Shown piece by piece: positions 3,363 through 13,709 of a stretch of DNA of 52,762 nucleotides. The notes beneath the pieces were generated by a model. It saw only the letters and a list, made by a program, of their open reading frames with translations. It made no database searches and was not told where the DNA came from. The position numbers were made by a program, and so were the translations under genes. Each line of letters starts with the position of its first letter. The first letter of the stretch is position 1. This stretch comes from Candidatus Parcubacteria bacterium. Its GTDB lineage: Bacteria; Patescibacteriota; Minisyncoccia; UBA9983. Location: the NCBI GenBank assembly GCA_003599625.1, contig QZIU01000009.1, positions 1 to 52,762 of the forward strand, in the 5' to 3' direction.

Positions 3363-3890
3363 TTAAAAAATGTTTTCAATCAGCATATCCAAATCCACGT
3401 CATTTCCATTATCAATGATGATGTGATTTTGATCATTGGGAGAAAACTTTTCGAAAATATCCTCAAACAAAAGATGCATTTTTAATGCCTCTTCAGTTGA
3501 GAGAATGTGTCCTTTCCTGCTCATTGATTGAAGCCGCTTCTCAACCGTTTCATATGAGCATCGCACTTCAACCCATAGCACCTGCACATCTCGTTCTGTA
3601 CACATAGATTCTAGTCTCGCGCGAAGTGAATTCAAGTGAAAAACTTCGTCCATTATTACCGTTGATATTCCTTGCTTAAAAAGACCGAAAGTATGCTCAA
3701 TGGCTTTTTGATAATAATTCCATCTTTGTTCTGGCGGATCAATTTGGCTTGTTACCAGAAGTGGATCGACATCGTTTTTTTTAAAATCATCAAGATCGAC
3801 AATTTTTGCTCCGATTTTCTTGCTTACTTTTCTAGAAATTGTTGACTTACCTACTCCAGGCAAGCCGGCGAATAATAAAAGTTTCTTCAC
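3363..3890 (-). CDS. Small P-loop kinase (AAA_33-like)
   Basis: Walker A GLPGVGKST; VDLDDF; lid-like motif ETVEKRLQSMSR. GTG start with AAAGGAGG Shine-Dalgarno. Confidence 0.8.
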   Translation of the reverse strand: MKKLLLFAGLPGVGKSTISRKVSKKIGAKIVDLDDFKKNDVDPLLVTSQIDPPEQRWNYYQKAIEHTFGLFKQGISTVIMDEVFHLNSLRARLESMCTERDVQVLWVEVRCSYETVEKRLQSMSRKGHILSTEEALKMHLLFEDIFEKFSPNDQNHIIIDNGNDVDLDMLIENIF

Positions 3891-5525: not shown

Positions 5526-7180
5526 TTTCTCATAAAAAGCCTGGCCATGCGGATCTCATCGAAGCTGAAGCTGGGGCCGAGGATGTCGCGGGCGGGAGAA
5601 AGCTTCATCTCGCCGGTCTTTTTGTAAACTTGATCGAAAGCCGCCTTTATTTTCTCAAAATTCTCTTTGCAGGGCTTAATGTGCCCGATATCCGATTTCG
5701 GATCGATCATCCCCTCCTCCGCGAGTTTTTCCAGGTGGCTGATGATTGTCCCTTCCGTCATATTTCTTTCTATTGCCATTTCTTTGACCGACTTTTTATC
5801 AAGCGCCAAACATCTGGTTATTTCGCAAGTCGAGAGCTTTTTCTTTTTGCCTTTATATTTTTCCTTCGGCGCGATAGAAGCGAGATATGTTTCCTGCGCG
5901 CGGGTCTTTTCTTCGCCAGGCATGCGCTTTAATTCGTCAGACAACCGATCGGAATGATCCTTGAGTTCTTTATCAAACTCAAGGATATCTTCATTTACCT
6001 TCAAAGCCATTTGATTCAGGCCGAGCAATTTGAGTCCGTCGAGAGTTCTCACCCTGGAAAGCGCCACATAACCCATGCCGCGCTCGAACGATTTTGAAAG
6101 ATCCACCTCCACCGCGTCCAAGCTCATTCCCTGGCTCTTGTGAACCGTGATAGCCCAGGCCAGCCGTAGCGGAACTTGAGAAATTTCCGCCTTGATCTTC
6201 CCTTCCTCCTCTATTGCCCAACTGACTGGAGAAGCCGCGATCCGCTCCCCGCCCGCCGTTTCCACCATGGGCCCGTCGTCATGGAAACCGACAATCTTGC
6301 CGAGTGTTCCGTTCACATAACCTTGTTCGTGATTATTCTTCACGAACATCACCCTTGCTCCCCTCTTCAGCTTTAAAATTTCCGGCGCCAAACAGCTTTT
6401 TTTGAGAGCTTCCAACAAATGGGGTTTTCCCTTATCGCCCATGCGAAAGACGCGTTCCTCCCCGCTGATTCCGTTCAACTCCCGATCATTCACTTCGTCC
6501 ACATCCGCGTTGTGCGTGTAAAGTCTGGTCGGCTGGATAGAATTTTTGGGCTCTTTTTTATATCGGCCTCGCAAGTGATCCAATGTTTCTTCCGAAACGG
6601 TATTGCTTCTTATGTCGTTTAGCACTTTTAAGCAAGTATCGTCCTTCTGGCGGTGCTGCTCATGCAGATAGCAAATTCTGGGATTCATTTTCTGCCACGC
6701 TTCCGATTTGTAAATAAAATGAGCCTCCGGTTCTCCTGTCCTTGCTACGGGCGGAAGCTGGAAGAAATCCCCGCAAAGCACCACTTGCATTCCGCCGAAT
6801 GGCGCGTCCACCCTTCTGATCTTCCGGACGATCTTCTCCGCGAGGTCGAGGCGAAAATGGTGAAGCATCGAGACCTCGTCGATGATAAGAACTTTGGTAT
6901 TTTGGAAACGATCCCAAAGATACTTCCGGCCTTCGATCTCGCTAATATCTCGATCAGTTATTTGATTCTTGATTCCGATCCCCGACCAGGAATGGATAGT
7001 GACGCCGTTCATGTGCGTGGCGGCGATGCCTGTAGAGGCGGTAACGGCCACCGGGGCGTTATGCTTCCGCAAATAATCGATATACTTGTTCAAAAGAAAA
7101 GTCTTCCCGCTTCCGGCGGATCCGGTTAAATAAACACTATGTCCCATCTTTAATACGGCAAAAGCCTCTTCCTGAGTCAT
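5522..7180 (-). CDS. Pif1-family SF1B helicase with C-terminal helix-turn-helix
   Basis: GSAGSGKT, IIDEVSM, GDFFQLPPV, LAWAITVHKSQG, YVALSR; C-terminal HTH (RNMTEGTIISHL). Confidence 0.93.
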   Translation of the reverse strand: MTQEEAFAVLKMGHSVYLTGSAGSGKTFLLNKYIDYLRKHNAPVAVTASTGIAATHMNGVTIHSWSGIGIKNQITDRDISEIEGRKYLWDRFQNTKVLIIDEVSMLHHFRLDLAEKIVRKIRRVDAPFGGMQVVLCGDFFQLPPVARTGEPEAHFIYKSEAWQKMNPRICYLHEQHRQKDDTCLKVLNDIRSNTVSEETLDHLRGRYKKEPKNSIQPTRLYTHNADVDEVNDRELNGISGEERVFRMGDKGKPHLLEALKKSCLAPEILKLKRGARVMFVKNNHEQGYVNGTLGKIVGFHDDGPMVETAGGERIAASPVSWAIEEEGKIKAEISQVPLRLAWAITVHKSQGMSLDAVEVDLSKSFERGMGYVALSRVRTLDGLKLLGLNQMALKVNEDILEFDKELKDHSDRLSDELKRMPGEEKTRAQETYLASIAPKEKYKGKKKKLSTCEITRCLALDKKSVKEMAIERNMTEGTIISHLEKLAEEGMIDPKSDIGHIKPCKENFEKIKAAFDQVYKKTGEMKLSPARDILGPSFSFDEIRMARLFMRK

Positions 7181-7341: not shown

Positions 7342-7884
7342 ATGACTCCTAAGCTTTATTTTATCACTGGTTCGAGCGGAATTGGGAAAAGTACAATAAT
7401 TCCGATTCTTAAATCTAGTCTCACGGATAACTTTGACATACACGACTTTGACGAAAAACTTACAGAAGAAGTTGCGATGAATGGAAGTTTATTAGATGCC
7501 TGGAGAAAAGAAACTACAACATATTGGATTGAACAAGCCCAAAAAAACCAAAAAAATAAAAAATCGACAATCGTTGTTGGTTTAATTTATGTAAGCGAAG
7601 CAACCGAGATAAATACGGACATTTCAATTTCTTTTTGTCTACTTGACGCTTCGGATAAAAAAATAAGAGAGCGGCTTATGGGTAAAAGATTTTCTACGTC
7701 AGAACGAATTGCGGGCCTGAAACAAGCTACCGGGCAAACTCCGGAAGATTTTATAGAAGAAAATAAAAACACAATGGATAGATTGCGACAAGAAGTTAAA
7801 AAGATAAACGGATTTGTTATCGACACGACAAATGATACGCCGAATGAAACAGTAACGAGAGTTATTTCTTGGATTAAGTCCTGA
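7342..7884 (+). CDS. Small P-loop kinase, paralog of 4208..4732
   Basis: Walker A GSSGIGKST, IHDFDE, LDASDKKIRERL, VIDTT. Confidence 0.75.
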   Translation: MTPKLYFITGSSGIGKSTIIPILKSSLTDNFDIHDFDEKLTEEVAMNGSLLDAWRKETTTYWIEQAQKNQKNKKSTIVVGLIYVSEATEINTDISISFCLLDASDKKIRERLMGKRFSTSERIAGLKQATGQTPEDFIEENKNTMDRLRQEVKKINGFVIDTTNDTPNETVTRVISWIKS

Positions 7885-7910
7885 TTTTTACTGAAATCAA
7901 ATGCCCTTTG

Positions 7911-8930
7911 TTAGAATGAATTCAGTATATTAAGGATTTTTCCGGAAAGTTGTTTGAATTGTTCTTTTGATTTCTCGATATTTTCTTTAGTGCCTTTTTG
8001 GTGGTCGTCAACAAGACTTGGATCAAGATCAAAAATCGCAACACCCAATTCTTGACACTTCGCCGGAATCCTTCCATAATCTTGTATTTCGCCAAGCGAG
8101 TCCTTCCAGCTCTTTTCAACTAAGCCGTTCCTGCCGTGCTTTTCCGAGAGGAAATGTTTTACTTTTTTCGGAATTTCTTCTATCCAATGACGATGATCTT
8201 TTATCGGCTGCTTGGCATAAACATTATACGAATTGATTATATATCCTATAAAAAGACCGTCTCCCGATAAAACAAATTTACTTTCCGTGTTTCCTGAAAG
8301 AGCCTTGCCCGTGACTTTCCAATTATGTTTCCATTTTTCAAAAACGGTTCCCAGATTTTCTATCCCTTGGACGCTAAAAGCGTCAGATATCATTGGGACC
8401 ACGAAGTAATCAGAACCGAGAAAAATGATCTGATTGAGCAATGACAAGCTGGGCGACGTATCGATCACAAAAATATCAATTTCATCCTTCATGCCTCTCT
8501 CTCGCAAGAACCTGTCAATGGCGCTCGTTTGAAAGTATCCAAGCTGTTGACCCGATGCCGCCTGTCCATAAGCTGACACGAGCAGATTTTCGTACAAAGA
8601 AAGATTCACGCTTCCCTTCAGGAGCGACAAATTTCCGCCACTGTTCGATACCGGAATGAACGGCACGGAAAAATCGACATCAGACCCGCCCTCTATCACA
8701 CCCTTTAATACGGTGTATATGTCTTTGTAGGTCGAGGAAAAAAGAGTATTCGCATACTGCGAATCTCCCAAAGCGAGACGAGATAAGTTACATTGGGGAT
8801 CAAGATCGACAAGCGCCGTCTTGTAACCTTGTTTGGCGAAAGACATTGCGCAGTTGAAGGCCAGGGTCGTTTTCCCCACTCCGCCTTTATTGTTGGAGAA
8901 TAAAAGTTTTTTAGTCCGGGGAAATTTCAT
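7911..8930 (-). CDS. ParA-family ATPase (orphan, no parB)
   Basis: Deviant Walker A KGGVGKTT, VDLDPQCNL, IDTSPS. TATAAT at 8939-8944, 8 nt upstream. Confidence 0.88.
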   Translation of the reverse strand: MKFPRTKKLLFSNNKGGVGKTTLAFNCAMSFAKQGYKTALVDLDPQCNLSRLALGDSQYANTLFSSTYKDIYTVLKGVIEGGSDVDFSVPFIPVSNSGGNLSLLKGSVNLSLYENLLVSAYGQAASGQQLGYFQTSAIDRFLRERGMKDEIDIFVIDTSPSLSLLNQIIFLGSDYFVVPMISDAFSVQGIENLGTVFEKWKHNWKVTGKALSGNTESKFVLSGDGLFIGYIINSYNVYAKQPIKDHRHWIEEIPKKVKHFLSEKHGRNGLVEKSWKDSLGEIQDYGRIPAKCQELGVAIFDLDPSLVDDHQKGTKENIEKSKEQFKQLSGKILNILNSF

Positions 8931-10446: not shown

Positions 10447-11412
10447 TTATTTATTTTTTTCTTCTCCTTTCATGCTCGCTTCGCGCCCCGTCAGGCGGAG
10501 AAATACGTCATCCAGCGTCGGCTTATGCACGGACATCGTGTCTATTTCAATCTTGGCATCGTGCAGCGCGTCCAAAATTTGCTTGACGGCAAAAACGCTT
10601 CCGTTGGTGGATACATCGATACTCCGCTCTTCCCTGTCGCTTTTCATTCCGTCTCTTTCCATAATTTTGACCGCCCGGTCAAAGTCTTCCGGCCGCTCAA
10701 TGACCACCTCGACCCGTTCCGTTCCGACATCGGCTTTAAGCTCGGAGGCGGTTCCCTCGGCGATGATCTTGCCCTTATCCAAAACGGCGATCCGATCCGC
10801 GAGTCTGTCGGCCTCCTCAAGATACTGAGTGGTGAGGAGGATCGTAACGCCCTCCTCAAGCAGCTTTTCAATTATTGACCACATGGCAAGACGGCTGCGC
10901 GGATCCAGTCCCAGTGTCGGCTCGTCGAGAAAAATAACGGGCGGGCTGGCGATCAGGCTCGCCGCCAGATCAAGGCGCCTACGCATGCCGCCGGAATAAG
11001 TCTTTACCGATCGGTCCGCCGCTTCCGTCAGGTCAAACTGATAAAGCAACTCATCGGCTCTTTTTTTGCTTTCTTCCTTGGCCAAGTGATAAAGACGACC
11101 CATCATGACGAGATTCTCTCTCCCGCTCAGAAGCTCATCCACCGCGGTGTATTGACCCGTAAGCCCTATGAAACTTCTCACTTTTTTCGGTTCTCTCCGA
11201 ACATCAAAACCGTTGACCAATACTTCCCCGCCGTCAGGCTTAAGCAGAGTGCTCAAGATCCTGACTATCGTGGTTTTACCGGCCCCATTCGGGCCAAGAA
11301 GCGCGAGCATCGTCCCCCGCTTCACGCTAAGATCTATGCCGTCAAGCACCTTCAATTTTTTGAAGGATTTAATGAGCTTTTTTATTACAATTGCGTCATT
11401 TCCGTCTGTCAT
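10447..11412 (-). CDS. ABC-2 exporter ATP-binding subunit (DrrA-like)
   Basis: GPNGAGKTT, YSGGMRRRLD, FLDEPT, C-terminal PTLDDVFL. ATG at 11412 preferred. Confidence 0.93.
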   Translation of the reverse strand: MTDGNDAIVIKKLIKSFKKLKVLDGIDLSVKRGTMLALLGPNGAGKTTIVRILSTLLKPDGGEVLVNGFDVRREPKKVRSFIGLTGQYTAVDELLSGRENLVMMGRLYHLAKEESKKRADELLYQFDLTEAADRSVKTYSGGMRRRLDLAASLIASPPVIFLDEPTLGLDPRSRLAMWSIIEKLLEEGVTILLTTQYLEEADRLADRIAVLDKGKIIAEGTASELKADVGTERVEVVIERPEDFDRAVKIMERDGMKSDREERSIDVSTNGSVFAVKQILDALHDAKIEIDTMSVHKPTLDDVFLRLTGREASMKGEEKNK

Positions 11413-11527
11413 GGCACTAAGAATATAACCACTCAAAACAAAAAAACCACTTTCTTAAAAAATACAAACAAAGACAAAATTGCTGCGGGTCGCCGGAGAG
11501 GCGACTATAATGCGCTTGAATCCCAAC

Positions 11528-11650
11528 CTGCCGGACTTGGACTCGATTTTCTTATGGAAAATCCCGGGGTTTCGCGGTTCCGTTTAGGAAAACAGAAACA
11601 TCTCTCAACCCTTCTCGTCCAACGAAAGCAGTTTGCTTTCTGTCCGGCAG
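11528..11650 (-). other. Structured element closed by a copy of the tRNA-Gln acceptor stem (duplicated tRNA 3' end)
   Basis: ctgccggacttggactcga is identical at 11528-11546 and 11669-11687; gtccggcag at 11642-11650 is the inverted copy; several internal hairpins. Confidence 0.75.
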
Positions 11651-11668
11651 TTTTCACTCCGCTTCAAA

Positions 11669-11739
11669 CTGCCGGACTTGGACTCGAACCAAGATACTCG
11701 CCTTCAAAGGGCGATGTCCTACCATTAGACGATCCGGCA
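11669..11739 (-). tRNA. tRNA-Gln(UUG), CCA not encoded
   Basis: Cloverleaf: TGCCGGA/TCCGGCA+G73, D-arm GTCT-AATGGT-AGGAC, anticodon arm TCGCC-CTTTGAA-GGCGA, T-arm CTTGG-TTCGAGT-CCAAG. Confidence 0.96.
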
Positions 11740-11796
11740 AAATTAACAAAAGTAGTCTACCACACCTTTTATCCATCCCGCAATCTTTCTTTTTCC

Positions 11797-11838
11797 GACT
11801 GTTACCTATTTTTGCTATAGCCTCGGATAGGTAACACT
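11797..11838. repeat. Tripartite palindrome, GCTATAGC family (copy 1)
   Basis: tgttacctat (11800-11809)/ataggtaaca (11827-11836) around central gctatagc. Confidence 0.8.
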
Positions 11839-11854
11839 AATAAAGGATCATTAA

Positions 11855-11885
11855 AAAAGGAAGCCGACTTGCATGGCTTCCTTTT
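11855..11885 (-). terminator. Intrinsic (bidirectional-type) terminator
   Basis: aaaaggaagcc/ggcttcctttt 11-bp stem, 21 nt downstream of the ABC exporter stop. Confidence 0.7.
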
Positions 11886-11906
11886 GAAATTTAAACATAT
11901 CTAAGC

Positions 11907-13709
11907 TTAAAAAACATGAACCTGGCTGTGAACGAGGTTCTGATACTCAAAACAAGATTTCATCAGTTCGGCATGCTTCCCTTCGCCAACGATCTTTCCT
12001 CCATTAACGACGAAAATTTTATCAGCATCCTTAATCGTAGATAACCGGTGGGCGATGATTATCGTCGTCCTTTCTTTCGCGACCTCCTTCATCGCTTGTT
12101 GAATGATGGCATCGTTCTGGGCGTCCAGATCGGATGTCGCTTCATCCAGAATCAGGATACTAGGATCTTTGATCAGCGCTCTGGCAATGCCTACTCTTTT
12201 ACACTGCCCGCCGGACAACTTTACCCCTCGTTCACCTATTATGGTATCGAAGCCATTTTCCAGGCGATGATAAAACTCGCTTACCCTCGACAGTCTTGAA
12301 ACTTTATCAAGCATCTCGTCGCTGACCAGCTCCGATTTTCCATTGAGAGGAAAGGTGATATTGTAACGCAAGGTATTGTCAAACAATAAAATTTGCTGTT
12401 CCACGATACCGACAGAATTTCTAAAATCCCGAAGGTCGAGCAATCTCAGGTCATGGCCGTCGATCAATATCTGGCCCGCGGTCGGATCATAAGCTCTCAT
12501 CAAGAGTTTGATTATGGTAGATTTACCAGATCCGGAATGTCCCACGAAGGCGGCCTTTTGCCCCGCTCTGATGATAAAATTGGCATTACTCAAAGCCTCA
12601 TGTCTTCCTTCGAAAAGTTTTGTCTCTTTTTTATTTTTTTCTTCAATGTAGTTTCTTTTGGGATAAACAAAAGAAACATTCTTGAACTCTATTTGGCCAA
12701 GATATTTCCCGGGTTTGACAGGGTTGGAAACGATTCGCACATCCGGCTCCACATCCATCATAACGAAGTAATTTTTTACGGAAGCATAGGCCGTCATCAA
12801 AATTCTTTGGATAGTTCCTATGGAAGTCATTTTACCCAACGCGCTGCTCGACCAGCTGAAAAATATCAGAAGATCTCCGGCGCTACATGAACCGTTTGAA
12901 TAGCAAACGGCTCCTGTGGCAATAACGGCAAATTTAGTCAGCCCGATGATCATGTCACGACAAGAGGAATACAGAGTGTACTTGCTCCATAACTTTTTTG
13001 AGAGGTTATTTACCGTGAATGAATCCTCGCGGTATTCGGAAATAACTCGCTCTTCCTGACTATTTAACTTCACGGTTTCGATATTCCTTAGGATCTCGGA
13101 ACGAATTTTATTATTATCGATTTCTTTTTCTTCGATTTGCCCAGCCTCTTCCTTAAATTTGCAGTTTATGTAGATATTGGCCGCAAGGTGCGCGATCATG
13201 CCAGCCAAAACCACAAAACCAAGCTTGAGGTTGATGAAAAATAAAGCCGCGGAGAAGAGAATGACTTGGATCACCACGGGAAATACTTCATACAATAAGG
13301 TATTGGTTATGGTGGCCACGGAATGTTCGCCCCTTGTTATCACATCCTGTTTGACTCCGGAGTTTTGATTTATATCCTGTCCGACAGAAAAAGTCATTAC
13401 CTTGTCTAAAGTTTTCTCGGATATATACTGGTGAGCGTCGATCCTCAGCTTGTTGATGTTGTACCAATAAAAATATCTGTCCACCACCATTGTCTGAAGA
13501 GTATAAACACCCAATGACAATACTGCCACAAGCATTATGTCCTTTGCCGATTTTCCAGCAACGAGAGCATCAAGAATTTTGCCGTAAATATATGGCGCAA
13601 TCAAATTTAGCGCTTGGCCCAAAAGAGTCAGCAATAACAGGATCGTTATCGCTTTCCAAAAGTTTCTGTAAAACTCGACAAATTTTCCGGCAAACTGTTT
13701 AAACTTCAA
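11907..13709 (-). CDS. ABC exporter, fused permease + ATPase (MsbA-like)
   Basis: N-terminal TM domain, GHSGSGKST, LSGGQCKR, LDEATS. TTG start with AAAGGAGG. Confidence 0.92.
   Translation of the reverse strand: MKFKQFAGKFVEFYRNFWKAITILLLLTLLGQALNLIAPYIYGKILDALVAGKSAKDIMLVAVLSLGVYTLQTMVVDRYFYWYNINKLRIDAHQYISEKTLDKVMTFSVGQDINQNSGVKQDVITRGEHSVATITNTLLYEVFPVVIQVILFSAALFFINLKLGFVVLAGMIAHLAANIYINCKFKEEAGQIEEKEIDNNKIRSEILRNIETVKLNSQEERVISEYREDSFTVNNLSKKLWSKYTLYSSCRDMIIGLTKFAVIATGAVCYSNGSCSAGDLLIFFSWSSSALGKMTSIGTIQRILMTAYASVKNYFVMMDVEPDVRIVSNPVKPGKYLGQIEFKNVSFVYPKRNYIEEKNKKETKLFEGRHEALSNANFIIRAGQKAAFVGHSGSGKSTIIKLLMRAYDPTAGQILIDGHDLRLLDLRDFRNSVGIVEQQILLFDNTLRYNITFPLNGKSELVSDEMLDKVSRLSRVSEFYHRLENGFDTIIGERGVKLSGGQCKRVGIARALIKDPSILILDEATSDLDAQNDAIIQQAMKEVAKERTTIIIAHRLSTIKDADKIFVVNGGKIVGEGKHAELMKSCFEYQNLVHSQVHVF

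Follow-up and report, generated by a model that had tools for sequence, protein, structure and literature searches.

The window analyzed here is the whole of a 52.8-kb contig stretch from a Candidatus Parcubacteria bacterium. Its single tRNA gene, a tRNA-Gln(UUG) on the minus strand (ARAGORN, Rfam), is followed by a hairpin-rich element at whose far end the tail of the gene appears again, and we conclude that the 141 bp at 11547-11687 are very probably an inserted member of a family of small modules that sit behind patescibacterial tRNA genes. The family is apparently undescribed—a small, recombinase-less hairpin module at tRNA tails, spread across Patescibacteria, with ends re-tailored to tRNA-Gln or tRNA-Asp—and full-text literature searches found no published description of such elements. 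Already known are tRNA-tail duplications at integration sites, and the folded single-strand attachment (att) sites of integrons and the phage CTXphi. Taken overall, we lean toward a non-autonomous insertion module that would fold as a single strand and be mobilized in trans, a mechanism that we infer from layout alone.

All sequences are written on the tRNA strand, which is the minus strand of the window. Read along that strand, the locus consists of the following parts, of which IRL is the inverted copy of the tRNA tail:

11669-11739, minus strand: tRNA-Gln, anticodon UUG, complete, with no encoded CCA (Rfam RF00005, 63.2 bits; ARAGORN, 11668-11740)
11669-11687, minus strand: R1, the left direct-repeat copy, which is the tRNA tail from T55 (T-loop) to discriminator G73, TCGAGTCCAAGTCCGGCAG (repeat search, sequence)
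11651-11668, minus strand: trailer, TTTGAAGCGGAGTGAAAA, whose TTT/AAA ends prolong the R1/IRL palindrome (repeat search, sequence)
11642-11650, minus strand: IRL part 1, CTGCCGGAC, the inverted acceptor 3' strand plus G73 (inverted-repeat search, folds)
11623-11641, minus strand: hairpin H1, AGAAAGCAAACTGCTTTCG, placed exactly at the acceptor/T-stem junction of IRL (fold, alignment A1)
11612-11622, minus strand: IRL part 2, TTGGACGAGAA, the inverted T-stem 3' strand plus the T-loop complement, in a GAGAA variant (sequence, fold)
11547-11611, minus strand: interior of two hairpins, GGGUU...AACCC around UUCUGUUU/AAACGGAA, then GAUUUUC/GAAAAUC (folds)
11528-11546, minus strand: R2, identical to R1 and in the same orientation, at the element's far end (repeat search)
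11489-11505, minus strand: GTCGCC-TCTCC-GGCGAC hairpin, outside the element (sequence)

The tRNA gene ends ...GGTTCGAGTCCAAGTCCGGCAG, then TTT, and its last 19 nt, at 11669-11687, occur exactly again at 11528-11546, with a start-to-start spacing of 141. The direct repeat reaches 23 nt at 96% identity; the block of exact identity runs from T55 to G73 and ends there, with TTT after R1 and GTT after R2. By our own estimate, the chance of an exact 19-mer recurring within about 500 nt is of the order of 1e-9, and blastn of the region against the entire window found no third copy of the tail. IRL part 1 pairs perfectly with R2 at 11528-11536 (9 bp) or, alternatively, with R1, in a 12-bp hairpin (11642-11653/11666-11677) that includes the flanking AAA/TTT and is 100% complementary. 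The original prediction, made by a model from the letters of the window, had pointed out the repeat, the complementary strand and the alternative hairpin, and all are borne out; the GTCGCC/GGCGAC hairpin, which it took to close the unit, is present, too, but stands beyond the element's end. The insertion unit thus defined consists of one repeat copy, the trailer, IRL, H1 and the interior, and it is the only module copy in the window by blastn and by subfamily profile searches. Its trailer is short and has no terminator stem, unlike the trailers of most relatives. The interior has the same two-hairpin layout as theirs in a different sequence, and its GAAAAUC arm extends to 11545, that is, into R2.

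That this DNA is inserted follows from comparison with about 110 related loci, which we label with L-numbers. A species-level scan, with one genome per species and the 19-mer as query, returned 97 stretches, nearly all of them patescibacterial tRNA-Gln genes, and a metagenome scan, in which two tails 117-177 nt apart were required, added 11 further stretches. Sorting all of the tails by the sequence downstream of them supplies natural empty sites. One native trailer (CAnTCATGTGAGA...; CA(G/C)TCATGTGAGA...) stands directly after the tRNA in L096, L077, L021 (its tRNA-Gln) and L014, and after R2 in L106, L109/L110 and L019. Another, CCAnnTnGAGC...CGAGAC, stands directly after the tRNA in L088, L029, L006, L004, L066, L095, L015, L037 and L087, and after R2 or R3 in L009, L101, L086, L079 and L016. 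Because the flank that abuts the tRNA where the element is absent abuts R2 where the element is present, the DNA between the repeats must be an insertion. Encoded CCA tells the same tale: it follows 8 of 14 R2 copies and none of 13 R1 copies, and so the functional tRNA lost its encoded CCA to the insertion. (The recognizable native flanks begin with CCA; these tRNA-Gln genes were originally CCA-encoding, and the displaced R2 keeps the CCA.) Judged by these junctions, insertion leaves the tRNA with a complete tail, R1, and often with a terminator, while the old tail, R2, and the old flank end up on the far side.

The window's own flank has a counterpart of this kind. A 23-nt string, TAGTCGCCTCTCCGGCGACCCGC (11485-11507), which starts 20 nt past R2, is identical in L026 14 nt past the tRNA-Gln gene, and a near-identical version lies 13 nt past tRNA-Gln in L011 and L111. 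In L026 and L011/L111, this hairpin belongs to another kind of tRNA-fragment insertion, and the window locus has therefore probably been hit more than once.

At least 16 distinct modules elsewhere in Patescibacteria share the architecture of the window's (L007, L007b, L009c, L016, L017, L079, L086, L097, L098, L101, L103, L105, L106, L106b, L109 and L021-Asp), making 17 with the window's included. In the species-level scan, an IRL-type module occurs at 9 of about 85 patescibacterial tRNA-Gln loci (L007, L009, L016, L017, L041, L079, L086, L097 and L098). The order of parts on the tRNA strand is always the tRNA with R1, a palindromic trailer, IRL, a hairpin interior of 60–130 nt, R2 and the native flank. 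The trailer is mostly terminator-like, a GC-rich stem with a T-run, and often starts with CAAAYGAAA and ends with its mirror image, TTTCRTTTG. The IRL consensus, CTGCCGGA-CTTGG-ACTCGAA(CC), is the complement of the tRNA from position 73 back to 52-54, T-loop included. R2 is identical to the tRNA from a point in the T-loop (positions 55-61) through G73, or for one or two nt more. The interior folds into two hairpins, and by its sequence the family divides into subfamilies A (L007/L104, L086/L041, L097, L016), B (L079, L109/L110, L098/L102/L108, L105 and the third repeat of L009), C (L017, L103) and D (the window, L101, L106). The four interiors do not align with one another and we therefore built no covariance model; searches were made with nhmmer, one profile for each subfamily, and these turned up extra copies. 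Only subfamily D has a hairpin inside IRL, exactly between the acceptor-like and T-stem-like strands, and this creates the three-way junction that the original prediction read as the body of a tRNA.

The modules vary in their state of preservation. IRL reaches the complement of positions 52-55 in many of them, with AACC in 6 of 15 copies and AAC in 3 more, and since only the intact tRNA gene, and not R2, holds 52-55, IRL must have been templated on, or be aimed at, the tRNA gene itself. R1, trailer and IRL make up one long, near-perfect palindrome in L101, L109, L105, L106 and L098. In L007, L079, L105 and L017, IRL has decayed, while R2 stays identical to the tRNA in many copies; in L017, R2 has drifted, and IRL shows no compensating change. 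IRL and R2 resemble terminal inverted repeats, and copies are found only at tRNA tails or as rare orphans. No target-site duplication was seen flanking the modules, and they do not fall within the definition of miniature inverted-repeat transposable elements. The GAGAA in the window's IRL part 2 produces a 2-nt mismatch with R2. GAGAA replaces TCGAA in the T-loop complement at three places (window 11612-11616, L098:112-251 and L021:42-105), in three different subfamilies; the same 2-nt bubble against R2 results in the window and in L098, and the copy at L021:42-105 is partial, with no R2 in the locus. The recurrence suggests that the bubble may matter, perhaps as a mark for cleavage or strand choice, or that it may be an old polymorphism.

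Signs of movement also come from tandem copies, cargo and a change of tRNA. L108 has two modules in tandem, with R copies 183 nt apart, where L102 has one, and the flanks of the two loci are identical. In L009 the tail occurs three times: R1 and R2 enclose a small GIY-YIG gene, and R2 and R3 enclose 4.7 kb that encode an ATP-binding cassette (ABC) ATPase, an ABC_tran_2 protein and a 459-amino-acid (aa) protein with an N-terminal membrane anchor. At the end of this cargo stand a terminator, an IRL and a B-type interior, and the native trailer comes after R3. In L007, two A-type modules, 99% identical, surround a 3.49-kb segment (L007:1967-5458) that has 81-bp inverted ends, 96% complementary, and that encodes a LexA-domain/peptidase S24/N6-N4 DNA methylase fusion together with a 357-aa protein that matches no Pfam family; it is probably a restriction-modification cassette. 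The L007 arrangement resembles an insertion with a long target duplication. L106 contains, 2.6 kb downstream, an orphan D-type copy, L106b, whose IRL (CTGCCAGA...CTAGGGCTCGAA) fits a different tRNA-Gln allele. Most telling is L021-Asp. Here a tRNA-Asp(GUC) gene is followed by a terminator-like palindrome and then by an IRL, GGGACTTGAACC, that is the inverted T-arm of tRNA-Asp; the interior is homologous to subfamily B (...GGAGTGAGATnTTTT...AAAATCCACGAGAGTGACC, as in L105); and R2 is the tRNA-Asp tail, CAAGTCCCTTCGCTCGCGC, joined at the same T-loop position, C56. Going by the sequence of L021, the ends of a module follow the adjacent tRNA and the interior follows the element family. The original prediction had offered a non-autonomous, tRNA-targeting mini-element as one of its readings, and flanks, tandem copies, cargo and the tRNA-Asp copy all favor it. 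It had also allowed that a large element between the repeats in relatives would make the window a deletion scar. Cargo does lie between tail copies in L009 and L007, and the window copy is the minimal, cargo-less form.

Folded as RNA, 11520-11660 of the minus strand reaches a minimum free energy (MFE) of -50.3 kcal/mol (z = -3.5, with none of 200 shuffles as good), and DNA folding parameters give the same shape with z = -4.95. The MFE fold consists of the 9-bp closing stem, GAAAGCA/TGCTTTC, TTGGAC/GTCCAA, UUCUGUUU/AAACGGAA with its G-U pair, and GAUUUUC/GAAAAUC, and so contains every internal hairpin that had been predicted. The relatives fold alike, each into a long IRL/R2 stem that closes branched hairpins, with the trailer hairpin in front. 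One strand mimics an acceptor/T-arm because the stem re-creates the T-loop-to-discriminator duplex of the tRNA gene and is closed by two or three hairpins. In alignment A1, which comprises the four sequences of subtype D, 91.4% of the cells of the named structure are paired, versus 25–41% when the partners are slid. H1, common to the window, L101, L106 and L106b, is 100% paired there, with 2 of its 7 pairs compensatory; with four sequences, this covariation is suggestive, not strong. The Rfam comparison proposed in the original prediction (Rfam 15) gave no match for the element, either in the window at the gathering threshold or on eight module-bearing loci at E<=1. (A second alignment, A2, made with MAFFT from subfamily B and the tRNA-Asp copy, was out of structural register at the closing stem and was excluded from the pair counts.) All 13 elements compared give a better fold on the tRNA-sense than on the antisense strand, and the consensus stems contain 40 G-T versus 10 A-C pairs. 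Overall, the structural preference for the tRNA-sense strand is modest, and it would be compatible with an RNA or with a single-stranded DNA form. A 50-aa, GTG-start open reading frame (ORF) at 11505-11657 (minus) was considered as a protein gene, but it overlaps the covarying hairpins (H1 and interior), R2 and the downstream flank and is very probably spurious.

How might such a module work? CTXphi has two dif-like sites in opposite orientation, about 90 bp apart, and its single strand forms a 150-nt forked hairpin that mimics dif and is recombined by the host's XerCD, the phage being without an integrase of its own; when integrated, the order is dif-like site, genome, attP2, about 90 nt, and attP1/dif, and integrons also integrate via a single-stranded intermediate (PMC3089051). 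The modules resemble CTXphi and the other integrative mobile elements exploiting Xer (IMEX) in their order—target copy, element, inverted copy, spacer, target copy—in similar sizes, and in the absence of a recombinase from the element. They differ in that the target is the tail of a tRNA gene, not dif, and in having no known Xer dependence and no filamentous-phage genes; most modules are without cargo, and a single-stranded intermediate is something that the layout of the module would imply. In integrons, imperfect inverted repeats (R''-L'' ... L'-R') at attC close a variable, often branched structure, and the folded single strand is recombined with duplex attI; the cassettes lack recombinases of their own and pile up in tandem. 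The modules, likewise, occur in tandem and can bear cargo, and their layout is that of a cassette with its attC site: an inverted and a direct copy of the target lie 60–130 nt apart, and their pairing re-creates the duplex target. But they have no GTTRRRY/RYYYAAC consensus, no intI beside the tRNA 'attI', an 18–19 nt repeat taken from a tRNA, and a patescibacterial host. The module may thus operate in the manner of the folded sites of integrons and IMEX, and we do not file it as a member of either since the defining boxes are absent (no dif-like or GTTRRRY boxes are evident in the module sequences).

Other familiar elements match some parts of the module and miss others. At the attL/attR sites of tyrosine integrases, and in cis-mobilizable remnants (CIMEs), a direct repeat runs from a tRNA loop to the 3' end, the element's copy makes the tRNA whole again, and elements accrete in tandem. 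Here, too, a direct repeat of the tRNA 3' part, of the same extent, flanks inserted DNA, and the size of the module is comparable to that of a bare attP. Such sites, however, have no inverted copy of the core, whereas the modules have no integrase gene nearby, have ends re-tailored to a second tRNA, and have homologous interiors. The objection already raised in the original prediction, that an attL/attR pair leaves the inverted copy unexplained, stands, and the inverted copy proves to be the hallmark of the whole family. Elements of the IS200/IS605 group and their miniature derivatives, the palindrome-associated transposable elements (PATEs), are strand-specific and have folded subterminal hairpins, but no classical terminal inverted repeats or target duplications; IS200/IS605 elements insert immediately 3' of a sequence read by an internal guide, and their non-autonomous copies are mobilized in trans. 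Guide and target are 4–5 nt long in these elements versus about 18–22 nt in the modules, in which the left-flank target is the same as the right end. The t-elements of plant mitochondria and the mascRNA of MALAT1 are tRNA-like processing signals that keep the T-loop and elbow. Downstream of a gene, the modules have an acceptor-like stem that ends in G73 and that RNase P or RNase Z might in principle recognize; their T-loop, though, is paired or replaced, and they are inserted DNA of variable copy number.

Under the mobile-module reading, the IRL-interior-R2 fold would be the module's recognition or recombination site, used as folded single-stranded DNA by a recombinase or transposase that is supplied in trans. 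A folded-att chemistry of this sort would explain the inverted copy and why no recombinase is found in cis, together with the tandem arrays, the mild strand bias and the cassettes without cargo. As the specific chemistry, drawn by analogy, it is possible but doubtful. An IS200/IS605-like peel-and-paste or cut-and-paste of a single strand, in which IRL would serve as a long guide both for the target (R1) and for the right end (R2), would fit equally well, and would explain, besides, why the insertion boundary falls at G73 and why IRL reaches into 52-55. If quasi-palindrome correction acts around the trailer, it could preserve the fit between IRL and the local tRNA. Bolder, and in our opinion rather unlikely, is the notion of a programmable, recombinase-less element in which some 20 nt of IRL and its mirror, R2, set the insertion site by pairing or by duplex mimicry. 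Changing IRL and R2 would then retarget the element from tRNA-Gln to tRNA-Asp, as L021 suggests, and the enzyme would be an as yet unrecognized host or helper protein of Patescibacteria. Whatever the chemistry, the window copy is probably an inert passenger today, transcribed at most as a trailer of the tRNA, and it may be a fossil.

Quite different is the supposition that the element acts as RNA. It might be a co-transcribed, tRNA-like noncoding RNA; it might address RNase P, RNase Z or the CCA-adding enzyme, as a decoy or as a processing signal; or it might work as a switch, with IRL sequestering now the tRNA tail (R1), now R2. The original prediction listed a tRNA-like RNA or switch first. 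The fold is real, helices are conserved, and some changes are compensatory or produce G-U pairs on the tRNA-sense strand. No terminator separates the window's tRNA from the element, and in the MFE fold of the 257-nt co-transcript R1 is paired to IRL and R2 to the 5' strand of the tRNA, a genuine alternative conformation by which a read-through element could in principle compete with the cloverleaf (co-transcriptional folding would favor the tRNA). Encoded CCA after R2 might be counted here, too, were it not simply the native flank. But the element is not tRNA-like: T-loop, D arm and anticodon arm are missing, the T-loop being paired or replaced by the interior, and neither a tRNA nor any other Rfam model matches it. 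ARAGORN and Rfam call no tRNA on the window's mimic, and eight related loci give no tRNA match on the module at E<=1. In most relatives IRL is set apart from the tRNA by a GC-rich hairpin and T-run, a point against obligatory co-transcription; R2 keeps its tRNA sequence while IRL decays, and the drift of R2 in L017 goes uncompensated; and polarity, tandems, orphans and cargo require a history at the level of DNA regardless. An RNA function, which has no independent support, is improbable, and the switch survives as a side effect of alternative pairing, not as evidence of function. Much more improbable still is that the element is a decayed tandem tRNA-Gln, which kept the acceptor 5' strand, a T-stem strand and the 3' tail and had positions 8–55 replaced. 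True, CTGCCGGA reproduces the start of the tRNA itself, positions -1 to 7, a hairpin stands where the D and anticodon arms would be, and split or partial copies of tRNA-Gln do occur, at L070, L083, L036, L060, L050, L011 and L019. Yet the ACTCGAA or GAGAA after the T-stem strand is the reverse complement of the T-loop, which a direct copy of a tRNA cannot supply; in subfamilies A to C nothing separates the acceptor-like from the T-like strand, just as in an inverted 3' tail; the trailer is mirrored around R1 and IRL; and the same interior stands behind tRNA-Asp.

There is also the chance, a small one as we see it, that the element is an inert, CIME-like scar: a tyrosine integrase crossed over in the T-loop, the genes were deleted, and attL/attR and their arms were left, with the inverted copy a secondary product of quasi-palindrome correction or fold-back copying at the trailer hairpin and of no role. 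The block of identity from T-loop to discriminator is a textbook signature of tRNA-targeting integrases; Williams is said to have set out, in 2002, where elements cross over within tRNA genes. The near-perfect R1-trailer-IRL palindromes listed above are in keeping with a scar, as are the 52-55 complement, found only in the intact tRNA and so fitting copying from R1, and the frequent decay of IRL. The stacking of tandem elements on the 3' side of a small-RNA gene has precedent in the ssrA islands of Dehalococcoides (PMC3146451). Had the inverted copies arisen independently, however, one would not expect a single T-loop position to mark the end of IRL in all four subfamilies as well as behind tRNA-Asp, with homologous interiors next to it. 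Nor is there a core-type inverted repeat (CTTGG-like) to the left of R2, and the interiors keep covarying hairpins. No integrase came to light either: 141 bp leaves no room for its gene, and a screen with a crude motif expression (rather than a full annotation of the window) found no tyrosine-recombinase motif in the window or beside any module in the approximately 110 loci, the only match overall being in L018, 6 kb from its tRNA.

Several things count against the mobile-module reading in its turn. No enzyme for the modules came out of the crude integrase screen, and no excised circle or junction was seen. Only one non-Gln module, that of tRNA-Asp, turned up in a sample of 30 non-Gln tRNAs. 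The metagenome matches were picked for an exact R2, and the conservation of R2 is thus partly a matter of ascertainment. Many copies are fossils, IRL having decayed in several. The 52-55 complement in IRL would fit pairing with the tRNA gene better than pairing with R2, and the simplest folded-att model does not predict it. The strand preference shrinks when antisense alignments are folded in their own right, to a contrast of only 19 versus 13, and shuffle z-scores are similar for both strands. Finally, insertion at the window locus is inferred by analogy with L026 and L011, because there is no close relative: the databases hold no close syntenic relative of the window genome (the best homologues of the flanking genes, at 84% for the ATPase and 60% for the ABC permease, lie in other contexts), and no tRNA-Gln occurs beside homologues of either flanking ABC gene in the contigs fetched, so that the comparison yielded no empty site for the exact window locus.

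The search for an enzyme and for other identities can be reported briefly. There is no recombinase domain in the annotated cargo of L009 or L007, and the 459-aa ORF of L009, considered as a hidden recombinase, has an N-terminal membrane anchor and no family or PDB similarity. TnpA and TnpB are absent from the few annotated cargo regions; no systematic search for them was made. Viral contigs, scanned for the repeat and two interior motifs, gave only chance matches in coding DNA, hence no evidence for a phage-borne attP. GIY-YIG nucleases were rejected as the module's enzyme, as none is encoded in the window and they are absent from most modules, though the site is shared with GIY-YIG cassettes. 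Introns of group I or II and small ribozymes were rejected, as the element is too short, has no conserved cores and has no Rfam match at E<=1; a retron or other noncoding RNA linked to reverse transcriptase (RT) can be set aside, too, as no RT gene is nearby. ARAGORN and Rfam find no transfer-messenger RNA (tmRNA), for which the interior would be too short and in which the T-loop would be kept. A tRNA gene on the opposite strand of IRL fails because its T-stem does not pair.

The element lies within a 495-bp gap between two genes on the minus strand:

ends at 11907, minus strand: ABC transporter with fused membrane and ATPase domains
starts at 11412 (most likely ATG), minus strand: ABC-2-type ATPase

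Homologues of the ATPase are overwhelmingly from Patescibacteria and the candidate phyla radiation (CPR). Simple scans of 11300-12000 found no promoter-like or terminator-like sites. A palindrome with 16-nt arms, AAAAAAGGAAGCC...GGCTTCCTTTT, at 11850-11890, just past the upstream ABC transporter gene, resembles a bidirectional terminator, and a perfect 10-bp inverted repeat, TGTTACCTAT/ATAGGTAACA, lies at 11800-11836, about 60 nt upstream of the tRNA; the simple terminator scan called neither of them.

Modules are not the only insertions at these genes. When modules, GIY-YIG cassettes and partial copies are counted together, about one in four of the sampled tRNA-Gln loci has an insertion of some sort. 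GIY-YIG nuclease genes (about 85 aa, PF01541) stand directly downstream of tRNA-Gln in at least six species-level genomes (L009:720-980, L064:170-409, L072:39-278(-), L094:1627-1869, L023:349-591(-) and L045:873-950). In L009 and L064 the gene is between two copies of the tRNA tail, and the right end of L064 matches the right end of a subfamily-A module (AAACCGnGGGTTTCCCAGGAGT); in L072 the native trailer follows the stop codon and there is no second tail. From their sequences, these loci look like a cassette of the homing-endonuclease type at the same site. Partial copies of tRNA-Gln that run from the D or anticodon arm to the 3' end occur at L011:6938-7084(-), L111:7297-7471(-), L019:5992-6121(-), L082, L039 and L107; some are interrupted in the anticodon loop and T-loop and look like remnants of integration of the anticodon-loop type. 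A second type of insertion splits the old tRNA-Gln near position 26, past the D arm (L070, about 6000-6420; L083, about 6380-6660; L036, about 3400-3720; L060, about 960-1200; L050, about 7730-8000). Its cargo is one or two long hairpins and a complete new tRNA-Gln gene within short inverted repeats, and the old 3' two-thirds remains downstream as a pseudo-tRNA. The loop of the L083 hairpin, CAAACTGCTTTG, resembles that of the window's H1.

Their pseudo-tRNA tails and long palindromes mean that modules of this kind can mislead tRNA annotation, att-site callers and assemblers. They also mark points at which cargo enters: ABC transporters, restriction-modification systems and GIY-YIG nucleases. 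If the inverted copy is the determinant of specificity, the module would join integron attC and CTXphi as the third natural recombination site in which a folded single strand stands in for a duplex, and as the first of them with tRNA genes as its target; its specificity could be read, and changed, in about 20 nt. Patescibacteria have tiny genomes, few recognizable mobile elements and almost no genetics. In these organisms, as the family shows, small, structured DNAs use the 3' ends of tRNA genes as active landing sites and bring with them a replacement tail and, often, a terminator.

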